Positions 3,634 through 59,864 of a DNA stretch of 64,000 nucleotides are shown in pieces. Each line of letters opens with the position of its first letter. Within the stretch, counting starts at the first letter, position 1. Location of the stretch: positions 32,001-96,000 of the IMG/VR virus record IMGVR_UViG_3300028887_000002. One strand, written 5' to 3'. The position numbers and the translations under genes are program-made. The DNA is from a virus. Its lineage: Duplodnaviria > Heunggongvirae > Uroviricota > Caudoviricetes. The notes below the pieces were generated by a model. That model searched no databases and had not been told where the DNA came from. It saw only the letters and a program-made list of their open reading frames with translations.

Positions 3634-4062
3634 TATTTTGTCAATTTTCTTTCCGTTTTGGTACGCAACATATGTCCCGTCAACAAAATATAGGTTGATA
3701 TCGGACTTGCCGTATTTAGAAAATTGAGAATAGAACCATTCGTCCTTTGTGAACAGACGTCGTTTCATATTGTCGGTGAGTGTTGAATTGACAAATGATG
3801 GTCTAACCAGTTCAGCCTTTCTGCTTTCGTTTTTCGCCGTTTCTGAATTTCCGTCCCGATAGTTCGACAGACAACTGGCGTAATGTTTAAGGTAGTCTAG
3901 ATGACTGCTGTACATCTTCACGACTGGATGGTTTTTCCATGCGGTACTTTCGCCTTTGATTGCCTTGACGATTTGGTTGCATTCGACTATCTGCTTGTTC
4001 AACCTCCGTCTGTCAAGGACTGACGCTGTGTAGTATGGCGTTCCGAGAATAAAGATTTGCAT
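3616..4062 (-). CDS. pyrimidine dimer DNA glycosylase / endonuclease V family protein
   Basis: MQIF...LDRRRLNKQIVEC.QI...W.NHP.VKMY signature. Confidence 0.75.
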   Translation of the reverse strand: MQIFILGTPYYTASVLDRRRLNKQIVECNQIVKAIKGESTAWKNHPVVKMYSSHLDYLKHYASCLSNYRDGNSETAKNESRKAELVRPSFVNSTLTDNMKRRLFTKDEWFYSQFSKYGKSDINLYFVDGTYVAYQNGKKIDKIFGSSK

Positions 4063-4069
4063 GGTTATA

Positions 4070-4348
4070 TTACTTAAAAATGGTTTCACAATAAAATGCT
4101 AACGGTTTATCTTTGAACTGATATTCCTCAATAACAGCATCTTCAGTGAATTCTATCTCGTTTTTTGTTTCATAATCAATGGAAACACCAACATTGATAA
4201 TGCGTCCGAACCAAGAACTTTTGTCATAAAAGAAACACTTGGTAGGTCTAACTACAATGCCATCGGGAAATTTCACCCGACACTGCAAGGTTGGGCAGAA
4301 ATAACTCCTATTGTTATCAAGTCTATAATATTTGTTAGTTTCAATCAT
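4070..4348 (-). CDS. hypothetical protein
   Basis: 92 aa ORF. Confidence 0.6.
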   Translation of the reverse strand: MIETNKYYRLDNNRSYFCPTLQCRVKFPDGIVVRPTKCFFYDKSSWFGRIINVGVSIDYETKNEIEFTEDAVIEEYQFKDKPLAFYCETIFK

Positions 4349-31751: not shown

Positions 31752-32116
31752 GCTTTGTCGTTGTTTTCTAAGTTTATTATTTTCCCGTCAAGGTTGACAT
31801 ACGGTATATTGAGGTGTACATATTCCTCATCCCAATCATCGTACATCATATCCCACCATGGGTTCTTTACATATGCGTTCGCATTACTATTACTATAAAA
31901 GATAATGCGCTCGATGGTATAGACTGTTGCATCTGGTATCTCATACTTGATTGCACACTTTTCTAATTCTGTAATTATACTGTCAAAGTTCACGAACTTT
32001 CCCCACTTGTTGGTTGTAATGTTCCCAGTCTCCTTGTAGGTTATATAGTAACTTTCAATCCTGCCAGTGGCTTCCTGGCACTTCTCAATAAATTCGTATA
32101 AGAGTTCCTTTTTCAT
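31748..32116 (-). CDS. hypothetical protein
   Basis: 122 aa ORF. Confidence 0.6.
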   Translation of the reverse strand: MKKELLYEFIEKCQEATGRIESYYITYKETGNITTNKWGKFVNFDSIITELEKCAIKYEIPDATVYTIERIIFYSNSNANAYVKNPWWDMMYDDWDEEYVHLNIPYVNLDGKIINLENNDKA

Positions 32117-53883: not shown

Positions 53884-54160
53884 AAAAAAGTGACAGATTT
53901 CTTCAAGTTTTTTAATTTTTTGTTCTAGCCAGTGTTTTAAAACTTGGTGCGTGGCCAGCACTTTACCAGTTCTGTCAAACATTCCATAAAACAGTTCACT
54001 GCCTCAACCTCTCTTTAAACATTTACAGAAGACTTATCGCTTTCTTGTTCTTGCTGGGCGCCAATCCAACAAGGAAAACTTGCTCCTATGTTCCGTGGAA
54101 TAGCCTCTACCACGAGTCAAAATTTAGATTAGAAACGTCTTAGTGACCACCGACGTTTTG

Positions 54161-54234
54161 CGGTGTGTATGGGACACGAACCCATGACCCTCGGCGTGAT
54201 AGACCGATATTCTAACCTACTGAACTAACACACC
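54161..54234 (-). tRNA. tRNA-Asp with unusual ATC anticodon
   Basis: TCGGT-CTATCAC-GCCGA anticodon arm; G73; Asp-like body. Confidence 0.85.
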
Positions 54235-55134: not shown

Positions 55135-55140
55135 ATATCG

Positions 55141-55217
55141 CCGCACCGCCTCGACTCGAACGAAGACCTCATAACGCTTTTAACGTCATTGCACTACCAG
55201 TATTATGCTACAGTGCG
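55141..55217 (-). tRNA. atypical tRNA, anticodon AAA (Phe?)
   Basis: Good acceptor, D and T arms; ATGACG-TTAAAAG-CGTTAT anticodon arm. Confidence 0.65.
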
Positions 55218-55327: not shown

Positions 55328-55367
55328 ATTCTCCTAAGAAAGGAGTAGCATGAAAAGTAAAATTGTG

Positions 55368-55449
55368 TGGGAGGAGGAGGACTCGAACCTCCGAAGGTGT
55401 TACCCGCCTGATTTACAGTCAGGTGCAATTGCCACTATGCGACCCTCCC
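55368..55449 (-). tRNA. tRNA-Tyr(GTA)
   Basis: Canonical type II cloverleaf. Confidence 0.93.
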
Positions 55450-55460
55450 GTTAAAAAAAA

Positions 55461-55742
55461 CAGAACCCTTTGATTTAACCCGTGCATAGTAAATTGTTTG
55501 CTGTTATAGGGTTCCATGAAAAAACAGAAGTCTGGTGATGTTCCTTTTGTGTTTAACTTAAAAAATGCAGAAAGTTTTAAAAGTTTTGCTGTAAATGACT
55601 TCCATCATTGGGGAACCCGCTAAGAACCGTTGTAAAAATAAATGTAACGGTGAGAACATCAGCCCTCAATGTTTTAGAACAGAAGCCTAGAATTTTGGAT
55701 TAACAGTCCAGTCCTTAAAAAGGTTTTGCTGTAATGGCTTCC
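55461..55742 (-). repeat. array of three ACAGCAAA hairpin RNA units (55680-55742, 55525-55603, 55461-55515)
   Basis: GGAANNC-N3/4-ACAGCAAA-variable-GNNTTCTGTT; covarying closing stems GAAGCC/GGCTTC, GAAGTC/GACTTC, GAACCC/GGGTTC. Confidence 0.8.
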
Positions 55743-55815
55743 TTAAATATATTTTTTTTTTCAAATCCAATATGTCAAAGAACTTTGTCAACTTTTATTT
55801 TGTGGATTGACGACA

Positions 55816-55847
55816 CAAAGGTAAATATAATTATTGAGACTACCAAA
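55816..55847 (-). promoter_or_regulatory. Bacteroidota promoter driving the ncRNA/tRNA operon
   Basis: TTTG-N20-TACCTTTG. Confidence 0.72.
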
Positions 55848-55862
55848 AAAAATTATTTTTTT

Positions 55863-57203
55863 TTACTTGATATTTTTCTCGTATTCTACGAGTAATTTAT
55901 CAAGAAATTTTTGTCCGTCAAATCCAGCCTCCAAGAAGTTAAGAAGCATTGGGTTATACCCTGACATAAAGATATTGCCGTTTCTGTCCATTTCAGGACA
56001 AGTGATGTTACGGCTATTCAAGTTCCACCAAACAATCTTGGTTATATAACCCTTTTCTTTCCAAAGTTTTTCCAGTTCATCCTTCTTATATTTGGAACCT
56101 TCGTCAAATTCCATATCAGAAAGTATGACAAGAAATTCTGGGAGTTCATCCGTATCAAGCAAGAGTTCCATGACTTTTGCGAGGTCGGTATTGGAACAAT
56201 CACCAGTTATCATCGAACCGATTTCCTTGCTATAATTGGAGGTTCTGTCACCTATTGGCCTATCATCTGTATGATGGCATATGTGTTTGTGTTTTTCATT
56301 TCCCAATTCTATGATATGCGGGTAAGATGAAAAAGTGACCACGTGGTTGTTAAGGTATGTACTGCACTTACCAAGATAGTGACCGATAGATAAAGCCTTG
56401 CCAATTGAATCGTTTCGGTCGTACATACTTCCTGATGTATCAACTATAGGCATACAACTTATTGAAATCTTTTCCATCTGGTCAAAGACAATGTCTGCAT
56501 CAATCTTGCTGGCGTTCTTATAAATGTCGTATACGGTAGCCGTTGAGACATTCATCTTGGAAGTACCTTTCTTTACGCTATCAAGGTATTCGCTATATTT
56601 TGGGTTTATATCCTTGCGTGTATTAAAACACTTAGCATATTTTAACATTGCCAGTGACGGTATATGTTCAAACTCGATGTTTTCAACCTCGTTTCTTGAC
56701 AAAGTGTTCTCAATGGTATTGCATTTTATGAACTTACCATATGTCTGTTTATTCATGCCCCACTTTTTTGCAATTTGTCTTGCAATTAAGAGGTTTTTTG
56801 ATGCATAGCGTGGCATCCACTTCTTAATGAGTTCGTTTCCTTTTTCAATTTCAGACTTGAGGAACGAAAGAACTTCATCGGTTAGTCCGAATATAGCCAA
56901 AACATCGTCTGCGCGTCCTGATTTAACAATGCCCTCAATGTTGCACTGAGCAAGTTTCATAAGTCTTCTACCAAGGTCGCGTCTTCCTAAACCATAACGC
57001 GGGTCACGAATGAACCTTGCGAAGATTTTATCCTTTTCGGTTGTACCAATAAGGTCTTCGGTTACTTCACCCAAGTGATTCTGATAATATTCAGACAAAA
57101 ACAACAAGTTTATAAGGTTATTGTTGTTTGATACTTTGGTGTATGCAATGTCACCATTTTCAGTAGTCTTCACGTTAGCAAATGCTTCCATAATGTTTGT
57201 CAT
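55863..57203 (-). CDS. DUF2828 / TROVE-like protein with VWA domain (Ro60-related)
   Basis: TENG, RDPR.G.GRR, GR.DD, KWMPR, IPSLAM, DTSGSM (MIDAS), TFS, NTD, LSDMEFD, WWNL, SGY motifs. Confidence 0.85.
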   Translation of the reverse strand: MTNIMEAFANVKTTENGDIAYTKVSNNNNLINLLFLSEYYQNHLGEVTEDLIGTTEKDKIFARFIRDPRYGLGRRDLGRRLMKLAQCNIEGIVKSGRADDVLAIFGLTDEVLSFLKSEIEKGNELIKKWMPRYASKNLLIARQIAKKWGMNKQTYGKFIKCNTIENTLSRNEVENIEFEHIPSLAMLKYAKCFNTRKDINPKYSEYLDSVKKGTSKMNVSTATVYDIYKNASKIDADIVFDQMEKISISCMPIVDTSGSMYDRNDSIGKALSIGHYLGKCSTYLNNHVVTFSSYPHIIELGNEKHKHICHHTDDRPIGDRTSNYSKEIGSMITGDCSNTDLAKVMELLLDTDELPEFLVILSDMEFDEGSKYKKDELEKLWKEKGYITKIVWWNLNSRNITCPEMDRNGNIFMSGYNPMLLNFLEAGFDGQKFLDKLLVEYEKNIK

Positions 57204-57348: not shown

Positions 57349-57379
57349 CAAAGGTAAATCATTTTTTTGTAACTGCAAA
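57349..57379 (-). promoter_or_regulatory. Bacteroidota sigmaA-type promoter
   Basis: TTTG-N19-TACCTTTG upstream of the DUF2828 gene. Confidence 0.72.
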
Positions 57380-58880: not shown

Positions 58881-59864
58881 TTATAAAACCAACTTCTTGT
58901 CAAGTTTTTCTATGCGTTCCATAAGTGAAAGGACTTTCTTGACGCTTTCGTCCATAGTCTCAGCGTTTTGGTCTACCCACTGGCCACTCATATACTCTTT
59001 TTTCTTTGCTCTCTTTTCACGAGCCAGTTGATTTTTCCTTTCCCTTTCACGTTCCTTCTTTTGTTTCTCAATGTCGTTAAGGATTTCCTCGGTATCATCG
59101 TGAACCATATTGCCAGTTTCTTCACGCTCTTTCCATCTGCGTTCCCTGTCCTTGAGATTACGGATGTCCATTTTCTCTCTGCGTTCCTTCTCCTGCCAAG
59201 CCTTTTCCATTTCAGCCTGCTTCTGTGCTTCGGCTTCTGCTTCTTGCGCTTCAACGTCTGCCCATATGTCTTTCTCTGGTTGGGTTGGTTTCGGTCCTGT
59301 CGTTGGTTCGTCCGATGGAGTTTCCTCCTTCTTAGTATCAAAAGCCTTTGAGGTTTTTAATATATCCATTGTAATTGGTGATTTCAAAAGTTCAAGGTTT
59401 GATTTGCCAACATCGAGGCTCTTTTCCGCCGAGGTCATCTTTGGATTTGTTGCATTGTCGACCTGCGGCACTTCTGCATTTTTGAATGACACAATCTTGT
59501 GAACTGTAGCCATTGTCTTGTCACCGTTAGGGTTGAATTTTCCATACTTTGGGCTTGGTGGATGATTGAACGTCTGACCAGTTTCCTTCCATGATGAAAT
59601 CCTATCGGTTCTGAAGAACTTCCAGTGGGGAACGGTTGTGGTTGTGTCGCCGTAAGGTTCAAAAGCCCTTATGACATCGTGACCATTCTTGTCCTGTCCA
59701 TAAGCATATACCTCTATCACTCTTGCGCCAGTATGTTTGTCCTCACCTTTCGAGTGGTAGTTAATGATAACCCTGTGGCGATTGTCAATGGCACTTCCGA
59801 TTTCAGTCGGACTTACTGTTGATTCTTCCAAGAGTTCTCTGAATATGTGTTCAAGCAATGTCAT
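58881..59864 (-). CDS. WYL-like domain protein with charged coiled-coil tail
   Basis: AI.NR..V.I.Y...R.IE.YAYG...IRA...WKFFRTDRI. Confidence 0.65.
   Translation of the reverse strand: MTLLEHIFRELLEESTVSPTEIGSAIDNRHRVIINYHSKGEDKHTGARVIEVYAYGQDKNGHDVIRAFEPYGDTTTTVPHWKFFRTDRISSWKETGQTFNHPPSPKYGKFNPNGDKTMATVHKIVSFKNAEVPQVDNATNPKMTSAEKSLDVGKSNLELLKSPITMDILKTSKAFDTKKEETPSDEPTTGPKPTQPEKDIWADVEAQEAEAEAQKQAEMEKAWQEKERREKMDIRNLKDRERRWKEREETGNMVHDDTEEILNDIEKQKKERERERKNQLAREKRAKKKEYMSGQWVDQNAETMDESVKKVLSLMERIEKLDKKLVL

Follow-up and report, generated by a model that had tools for sequence, protein, structure and literature searches.

Handle-bearing small RNA units beside a phage DUF2828/DUF7788 gene as candidate Y-RNA-like partners of a predicted Ro60-shaped ring protein

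We analysed a 64,000-nucleotide (nt) stretch of viral DNA (the window; positions 32,001 to 96,000 of IMG/VR record IMGVR_UViG_3300028887_000002), with a focus on three small RNA units that lie on the minus strand between a DUF2828/DUF7788 protein gene and a tRNA array. The phage genome to which the window belongs is one contig of 339,287 bp and has DNA similarity to the Lak megaphages of Prevotella; the window includes a T4-like portal gene. An initial annotation, made from the sequence alone, had placed the units after a DUF2828-like gene and ahead of the tRNAs and had read them as a Ro60/Y-RNA-like system. The order of gene, units, and tRNAs was confirmed (gene at 55863-57203, tRNA-Tyr at 55367-55449), and the unit lengths (63, 79, and 55 nt), the minus strand, the motifs, the paired ends, and the unrelated interiors were all exact on re-reading the sequence. 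The features are listed in the 5' to 3' order of the minus strand; the handle is the terminal stem with its ACAGCAA motif, R2 is a covariance model described below, and RF01414 is the Rfam family of Dictyostelium Class I RNA.

57349..57358, minus strand: TTTACCTTTG box, promoter-like, 5' of the protein gene; an exact copy
55863..57203, minus strand: gene of the DUF2828 + DUF7788 protein, 446 codons (446 amino acids, aa), supported by the open reading frame (ORF), Pfam, and phrog_850
55816..55847, minus strand: promoter-like region before the RNA array, holding a TTTACCTTTG box at 55816-55825
55680..55742 (read from 55742 to 55680), minus strand: unit 1, 63 nt; R2 30.2 bits, RF01414 30.4 bits
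55604..55679, minus strand: spacer between units 1 and 2, 76 nt, a hairpin without the handle; folding z -1.23 (ordinary)
55525..55603 (read from 55603 to 55525), minus strand: unit 2, 79 nt; R2 33.7 bits, RF01414 27.5 bits
55461..55515 (read from 55515 to 55461), minus strand: unit 3, 55 nt, then a U-run and tRNA-Tyr; R2 33.8 bits, RF01414 23.2 bits
53521..55449, minus strand: array of nine co-oriented tRNAs directly 3' of the units, called by ARAGORN and with Rfam tRNA matches

The three units follow one plan, which comprises a 5' strand of 7-8 nt starting with GGAA, 3-4 nt, ACAGCAAA, an unrelated interior, a complementary 3' strand, and G(UU). Unit 1 reads GGAAGCC-AUU-ACAGCAAA-..-GGCUUCU-G, unit 2 reads GGAAGUC-AUUU-ACAGCAAA-..-GACUUCU-G, and unit 3 reads GGAACCC(U)-(U)AUA-ACAGCAAA-..-(A)GGGUUCU-G. 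The handle thus consists of an end-to-end stem of 7-8 bp, a single-stranded ACAGCAA(A) beside the 5' strand, and a 3' U-G (G/UGU). Single-sequence folding kept the terminal stem in all three units. The octamer ACAGCAAA was not significantly enriched in the window; its seven matches compare with an expectation of 3.45, and a count of seven was reached in 6 of 100 shuffles.

An A/T-rich stretch with TTTACCTTTG separates the protein gene from the RNA units. Only two exact copies of TTTACCTTTG occur in the window, one before the array (55816-55825) and one before the protein gene (57349-57358), and the box presumably fits the Bacteroidetes -7 consensus TAnnTTTG. On the evidence of this box, a candidate promoter of its own is plausible for the RNA array. 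A scan for sigma-70 promoters and terminators returned sites no more numerous than in shuffles. Just 5' of unit 1, at 55731-55783 (minus strand), the sequence UCUUUGACAUAUUGGAU weakly resembles the 5' part of the DUF2693 RNA motif (RF02956, 21 bits); this stretch may be a promoter-like element.

For the comparison across loci, MAFFT alignments of whole units misaligned the 3' strands, and only the clean eight-row alignment A5 was used as a seed. Covariance model R1, seeded with eight units of six loci, resulted in 87 matches at E<=1 in 506 kb, with both strands searched; all matches were on the gene strand, and they came from 55 of the 75 sources. In the alignment fitted to R1, a procedure that favours pairing, 98.6% of the cells were paired, and double (compensatory) changes were found in seven of seven stem pairs. 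The covariation score was 0.898, compared with 0.262 in shuffles and at most 0.156 for slid partners. The rebuilt model R2 was then confronted with the whole 339,287-bp genome, where it recovered the three units only (33.8, 33.7, and 30.2 bits), with the next best match at 15.4 bits. Across 71 loci, R2 gave 153 matches at E<=0.05. They came from 60 of these loci, and all but one (152) were on the gene strand.

Independently of the covariance models, we used a descriptor defined as ACAGCAA, a 1-4 nt spacer, and a closing stem of at least seven pairs. It was run on 81 loci around relatives of the window protein with 36-96% identity, some of which are duplicates of one contig or near-identical Lak genomes. 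The descriptor found 182 sites on the gene strand, compared with 8 on the opposite strand and 3-15 in 20 shuffles, and at least one site was present in 75 of the 81 loci. Relative to the gene ends, the sites cluster between 250 nt on the upstream side and 1 kb on the downstream side. The initial annotation had suggested a search for enrichment of the motif near DUF2828 homologues, and the enrichment is strong and on the gene strand. The comparison of sequences across loci therefore confirms that the three units are more than chance.

The window protein passed both curated Pfam cut-offs, for PF25043 (DUF7788; E 1.2e-12, 48.1 bits vs 27.1) and for PF11443 (DUF2828; E 7.4e-9, 35.4 bits vs 29), and it matched phrog_850 (E 4.8e-44). 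The DUF2828 and DUF7788 pair was present in 15 of 15 homologues from named phages, and TROVE in none of them. An AlphaFold2 model was built from a 17-sequence alignment, with a predicted local distance difference test of 80.7 and a predicted template-modelling score of 0.78. In the Foldseek search of the PDB, the eleven best rows listed for this model were all Ro60, aligned over 435-549 columns. They included the Ro60 of Thermus phage phiLo (template-modelling score, TM, 0.55-0.56), Deinococcus Rsr, and Xenopus and human Ro60, and were followed by isolated vWA/MIDAS domains. The predicted model contains a helical-repeat ring and a C-terminal vWA fold, and the structural comparison with Ro60 that had been proposed at the outset thus yielded a Ro60-like predicted fold. 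D255-x-S257-x-S259, T333, and D363 are invariant in the 17 homologues; DxSxS is the MIDAS-type motif of the vWA domain, and the window protein has it. PADLOC gave no match for the window protein. The homologue of Salmonella phage 7t3 (locus L110, 2183-3700) is annotated as 'structural protein'; if this label stems from virion proteomics, the homologue might be packaged.

Relatives of the window protein are numerous, with 1805 at E<=1e-5 in a large sequence collection and at least 696 deposited phage records (DUF2828/phrog_850). The sequence comparison supports the units as members of a large, undescribed family of Y-RNA-like RNAs beside DUF2828/DUF7788 genes in phages of many bacteria. The named phages with units include the following:

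FelixO1: four units among tRNAs behind the gene
Listeria phage A511: three units, upstream of the gene
Campylobacter phage CP81: two units, upstream, under the annotated 'ORF140' (L085, 2073-2210); found by the descriptor only
Mycobacteriophage Whirlwind: three units, downstream of the gene
Staphylococcus phage SEP9: three units
Klebsiella phage phi1_175008: four units
Bacillus phage MrDarsey: four units
Enterococcus phage PEF1: two units
Sinorhizobium phage phiM12: two units

In one named-phage set, which included SEP9, phi1_175008, MrDarsey, PEF1, and phiM12, 23 of 23 matches were on the gene strand. Whole-genome scans resulted in three matches in FelixO1, three in A511, two in Whirlwind, and three in SEP9, all adjoining the gene and none elsewhere. 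Units away from the gene were found in the jumbo phages XaC1 (five) and 7t3 (four) and in KVP40 (one), and those of 7t3 and KVP40 lie within tRNA clusters. The scan of bacterial genomes returned three loci, all in contigs of metagenome-assembled genomes, and the DUF2828 clade seems, on this slender basis, to be essentially viral. A 95%-identical relative (L004) carries units 2 and 3 only, and the upstream flank of unit 1 abuts unit 2 there; the number of units thus varies, probably by recombination between handles. Small ORFs annotated as 'hypothetical protein' overlap units in CP81 (ORF140) and in phi1_175008 (three minus-strand ORFs, L104, 3715-4175), and these ORFs over ACAGCAA units are probably not genes.

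As a control, four tRNA-bearing phages were chosen blind to the gene, by resemblance of their tRNA-Tyr to that of the window. Among them, a 735-kb phage alone has a DUF7788 gene (E 1e-40) and R2 matches; there were three, all on the gene strand, and one lies just upstream of the gene. No R2 match was obtained in the three tRNA-bearing phages without the gene (0 of 3).

The interiors of the units were compared for tRNA-like parts. A 7-nt-loop hairpin of tRNA type was present in 80 of 150 distinct units, compared with 13.8 +/- 3.7 in shuffles. Among 191 distinct interiors, a T arm (GG-UUCRANY-CC) was found in 44, whose median length is 120 nt, a D-arm motif in 15, another 7-nt-loop hairpin in 64, and none of these parts in 95. 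The module types in the relatives comprise anticodon-arm-like hairpins, whole tRNA-like domains, and YrlA-type permuted tRNA mimics. The unit at L035 3957-4072 scored 44.8 bits over the full-length YrlA model and has a T arm, a closed acceptor-like stem, and a D arm; the middle unit of Whirlwind has the same parts. Some units embed domains that score as tRNA, for example L048 4017-4088 (63.6 bits) inside the unit 3995-4105.

Within the window, unit 1 carries as its module an extended hairpin that resembles an anticodon arm, UGGA-CUGUUAA-UCCA, with AAGGA and AAUUCU as its flanks. It belongs to a subtype, UAAGGA(C), a 4-5-bp stem, a 7-nt loop, and AAUUCU, which occurs in five phages (that of the window and four others, including CP81). 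The loops of this subtype are CUGUUAA (twice), CUUUUAA, CUUGUAA, and CUGCUAA, so the 'anticodon' varies within a conserved frame. No tRNA part is recognisable in units 2 and 3; the 3' segment of unit 2 is common to its relatives, as judged by eye. The variable payload that the initial annotation had proposed is often tRNA-like, as it is in bacterial Y RNAs, and long units of relatives match YrlA over its full length at scores below the threshold.

We also compared the handle with that of TROVE loci. According to the accessible parts of two papers, the Y RNAs bound by TROVE Ro60 proteins have their genes close to the protein gene and on its strand (PMC4201824; PMC12135203). Table S2 of Chen et al. 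2014 (PMC4201824) lists 22 phages, namely Bacillus phage G, CcrColossus, and 20 mycobacteriophages whose Ro has 552 aa. CcrColossus gp139 and Bxz1 gp220, both in that table, carry TROVE and vWA_Ro60. R2 found nothing at their two loci at E<=10. The intergenic DNA beside each gene lacks ACAGCAA and has one G.CGAA. By sequence, the handle goes with the protein branch in the loci examined, ACAGCAA with DUF2828 and G.CGAA with TROVE, and such tracking is what direct recognition of the handle would predict.

From these results, we consider it likely that the three units are small non-coding RNA genes whose products serve as Y-RNA-like partners of the neighbouring divergent, Ro60-shaped DUF2828/DUF7788 vWA ring protein, with a constant handle and a tRNA-imitating module proposed to act as a decoy or tether. 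This reading draws on sequence comparison, a predicted structure, and analogy. The Ro60/Y-RNA-like interpretation of the initial annotation is supported in this sense by the enrichment of units at the gene, the Ro60-like predicted fold, the tRNA-like payloads, and the branch-specific handle.

In the proposed mechanism, the RNAs would be made from their own promoter or together with the phage tRNA array, and the transcripts would be processed into discrete RNAs. The stem and ACAGCAA would form the docking site for the ring protein, by analogy with the Ro60-Y RNA complexes described in the accessible text of PMC4201824 and PMC12135203. The interior would be an exchangeable payload that resembles tRNA to another partner. 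The ribonucleoprotein (RNP) could then serve as a decoy or a tether in the phage-host conflict over tRNAs and RNA repair, by offering tRNA look-alikes to tRNA-directed enzymes of the host or the phage. Direct binding of the protein to the handle and a counter-defence role are what we infer from this analogy.

The surroundings of the units are consistent with such a setting, as tRNA arrays flank the units and RNA ligase genes lie nearby in XaC1, 7t3, and A511. Other structured RNAs were observed in these regions. An abiF RNA (RF03085, 49.8 bits, gathering score 37) lies between two ACAGCAA units of an uncultured phage (L013, 4017-4053) and may be an antitoxin-like RNA carried as counter-defence. 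In A511, a ROOL-like RNA (RF03087, 87.5 bits, gathering score 99.1, E 3.4e-16; L084, 737-1288) precedes the three units and the DUF2828 gene by about 650 nt. A permuted tmRNA (RF04321, 56.8 bits; L042, 580-865) and a tmRNA-like match (L035, 5333-5413) are found in tRNA regions by DUF2828 loci of uncultured phages. This RNA-rich setting would fit an RNA-centred conflict with the host.

Several results weigh against the Y-RNA-like reading. The window protein has no Pfam match to TROVE (PF05731) at E<=0.01, and searches of PDB Ro60 by single sequence and by profile gave 0 matches each, so that the Ro60 link rests on a predicted structure with a TM of about 0.4-0.56. The folding energies of units 1-3 are ordinary (z -0.64, +0.10, and -0.72); since the count of ACAGCAAA in the window is ordinary as well, the case for more than chance rests on the comparison. 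R2 and alignment A6 were derived from matches in the same loci, which makes the sensitivity figures partly circular, and 11 of the 71 loci have no R2 match within 2.5 kb. The phages phiAS5 and FNU2 carry the gene and no unit at E<=0.1 in the whole record, and the units of CP81 are seen by the descriptor only. The units often lie inside tRNA arrays, so the linkage to the gene could in part be a shared linkage to tRNAs. The hint of expression is weak. In two bovine metatranscriptome studies, contigs span 55483-55730 and 55452-55731, respectively. Their ends coincide within unit 1, where neither has loose ends. Such contigs reveal neither RNA termini nor strand, the coding sequence is at similarly low depth, and DNA carry-over in the libraries is possible.

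The alternative that survives best, which we nevertheless regard as unlikely, is that the units are independent tRNA-mimic decoys not bound by the DUF2828 protein, with both being merely cargo of the same anti-defence or tRNA region. The units in tRNA arrays or far from the gene in XaC1, 7t3, and KVP40 would suit it, as would the other RNA cargo in the same regions (abiF RNA, ROOL-like RNA, and tmRNA-like RNAs). However, it leaves a handle that is constant across phages of very different hosts without a role, and against it stand the switch of handle type with the protein branch and the lack of units in genomes without the gene (0 of 3).

It is still less probable that the units are processing or punctuation elements of tRNA operons, such as a nuclease entry site, a terminator, or a spacer, with ACAGCAA as a cleavage signal. 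Unit 3 ends 11 nt before tRNA-Tyr begins (55367-55449), units lie between or beside tRNAs in the window and in FelixO1, MrDarsey, KVP40, and 7t3, and U-runs stand behind units 2 and 3. In A511, SEP9, and Whirlwind, by contrast, the arrays of units directly adjoin the gene, and no tRNA was called among the units or adjacent to them; likewise, the three tRNA-array phages without the gene have no units. Additionally, a simple terminator scan made calls at none of the three units, and interiors of 30-110 nt with conserved tRNA-like folds would be unexpected in punctuation elements.

Two mini-units consisting of the stem and ACAGCAA were observed in leaders. In KVP40 (L083, 2187-2226), the Shine-Dalgarno sequence and start codon of the DUF2828 gene lie inside the mini-unit, and in phiM12 (L087, 2027-2062) the mini-unit lies in the leader of the DUF2828 gene; both may reflect translational autoregulation via the same handle. 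These cases would agree with a reading of all units as cis-regulatory operators, and not as trans-acting partners, with the protein regulating the tRNA array or its own synthesis by way of them. We give this reading equally little credence. The window units lie 3' of the stop codon and behind their own promoter-like box, cis control suits neither arrays that combine 3-5 different units nor units at distances of tens to hundreds of kb from the gene, and the leader cases already presuppose that the protein binds the handle. A type III toxin-antitoxin-like repeat array or a mobile repeat was rejected, as the interiors are unrelated, the units keep a fixed orientation and position with respect to the gene, and their stem covaries.

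Other features of the neighbourhood were also noted. Two genes upstream of the Ro60-like gene, at 58881-59864 (minus strand), a 327-aa protein gave weak WYL-domain matches (Pfam E 0.005; PADLOC 5e-4). In the tRNA array, ARAGORN called a tRNA-Asp with the unusual anticodon ATC at 54160-54234 (minus strand) and a tRNA-Phe with the unusual anticodon AAA and a low Rfam score (34.6 bits) at 55140-55217 (minus strand).

The Ro60/Y RNA kind of RNP is known; what appears to be new is a branch of it that has a new handle and is widespread among well-studied phages. Our literature text searches returned no description of ACAGCAA handle RNAs or of a function of DUF2828. The initial annotation had stated that no RNA ligand is described for this family, and we likewise found no description; this statement is to be qualified by a preprint (10.1101/2024.10.10.617714), which, in its accessible text, speculates on Y RNAs behind the Bas63 gene gp130 without identifying them. 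DUF2828/phrog_850 occurs in the model phages FelixO1, A511, KVP40, and CP81 and in cluster-L-type mycobacteriophages, with its function so far unassigned. A defined RNA partner family with a simple, mutable handle would turn a 'Ro-like RNA-binding protein' into a testable RNP. If the proposal is true, it would also explain unannotated gaps and spurious small ORFs, such as CP81 ORF140 and the minus-strand ORFs of phi1_175008. The system would be linked to the conflict over tRNAs between phage and host, in which one homologue has an anti-defence phenotype according to the accessible part of the same preprint. ACAGCAA with DUF2828 and G.CGAA with TROVE form a natural pair of specificities for the study of RNA reading by Ro60-type rings, and the near-identity of the handle with that of Class I RNAs provides a concrete hypothesis for an RNA class of unexplained mechanism.

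With regard to known systems, we first consider the Class I RNAs of Dictyostelium. RF01414 is the only Rfam family matched by the units, through the handle, and Rfam 15 holds no bacterial or phage family for ACAGCAA handle units. In about 130 kb of phage DNA, 11 of 11 RF01414 matches at E<=1 fall on units. The match at L009 4226-4298 (41.8 bits) is above the gathering score of 41.5, and the window units are below it (30.4, 27.5, and 23.2 bits). The initial annotation had held that a match to an existing Rfam family would speak against its reading. Formally, this point is touched, but RF01414, too, is an orphan family, and its anatomy is that of the units; the match broadens the idea without explaining the units away.

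The accessible text of Kjellin et al. 2021 (PMC7919456) describes Class I RNAs as 42-65 nt or longer, with a short end-joining stem, an unstructured 11-nt motif CCUUACAGCAA adjoining the 5' strand, a variable remainder, and a conserved 3' CUGU. It reports them as unique to Dictyostelia, with nuclear genes and a DUSE (Dictyostelium upstream sequence element) promoter. Class I RNAs are abundant and developmentally regulated, and have been orphans since 2004 (Aspegren et al., in its references). Compared with this description, the units are alike in the terminal stem, the single-stranded motif ending in UUACAGCAA by the 5' strand, the variable interior, and the 3' C-UGU, and 7-9 of the 11 motif letters are common to the window units. 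They differ in that the window units are phage-borne, whereas Class I RNAs are eukaryotic, nuclear, and under the DUSE promoter.

The same accessible text names the RNA-recognition-motif protein Rnp1A/CIBP as the known direct binder of Class I RNA, and a Class I pull-down also gave GuaB, NdkC, and the uncharacterised DDB_G0281243 (bioRxiv 10.1101/2020.04.05.026054). As a tentative idea, the less probable side of the question in our judgement, the phage ACAGCAA RNAs and the Class I RNAs would form one class, with the handle read by a DUF2828-type Ro60-like protein and Class I RNAs as the Y RNAs of Dictyostelia. In that case, DDB_G0281243 would be an obvious candidate partner to consider, and a phage or bacterium could have been the source from which both the Class I RNAs and the protein entered Dictyostelia. 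On the phage side, the RNP of this class would display tRNA look-alikes in a modular way against tRNA-directed defences. The resemblance of the handles may reflect homology or convergence. Literature text searches gave nothing usable on Dictyostelium DUF2828/TROVE or DDB_G0281243, and the Atlas search for DUF2828 relatives returned viral and bacterial clusters only. Searches for longer homologues, aimed at a eukaryotic DUF2828 protein, gave none and then one 689-aa protein, from which phmmer led to 150 metagenomic representatives; the 10 clusters inspected had no informative names.

The second comparison concerns the bacterial and phage Ro60-YrlA/YrlB systems (PMC4201824, in its accessible part; RF02553). 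Both have a ring protein with vWA and RNA genes within a few kb, on the same strand, and often in tandem. The RNAs are alike in the terminal 5'-3' stem, the short conserved motif near the 5' end, and the tRNA-mimicking variable module, and the long units of relatives share with YrlA the order of T arm, acceptor-like stem, and D arm. However, the window protein is DUF2828/DUF7788 and not TROVE, without a sequence match to solved Ro60, and the handle has ACAGCAA(A) where YrlA has GNCGAAN0-1G. Window units 1-3 also have no T or D arm, and thus no permuted tRNA-like domain. The gathering score of the YrlA family RF02553 (69) was reached by none, with the best relative at 44.8 bits and no match for the window units.

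The third system is that of Thermus phage phiLo, with phiRo60 and the RNAs Yrl1 and Yrl2 (PMC12135203; PDB 9KOP and 9L5Y). Its Ro60 is the best structural match of the predicted window model (TM 0.55-0.56), and the gene setting is alike, as phiRo60 is described in the accessible text as a phage-encoded Ro60-like ring that binds adjacent small RNAs. In contrast, the phiLo RNAs were found by a CGAA motif, according to the same text, and the two proteins share 14-15% identity in the structural alignment.

Finally, the accessible part of the preprint mentioned above (10.1101/2024.10.10.617714) describes gp130 of the Felixounavirus Bas63 as having a Ro60-like predicted structure, as encoded directly upstream of tRNA genes, and as countering the Ppl defence system. 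Its authors guess that some of the 'tRNAs' behind gp130 are Y RNAs, and this text names no RNA, motif, or family. From the preprint's description, we infer that gp130 is a homologue of the window protein. FelixO1 has the same gene order, with four ACAGCAA units among the tRNAs. The two studies differ in that a phenotype is reported for gp130, whereas here the RNAs are identified from sequence.

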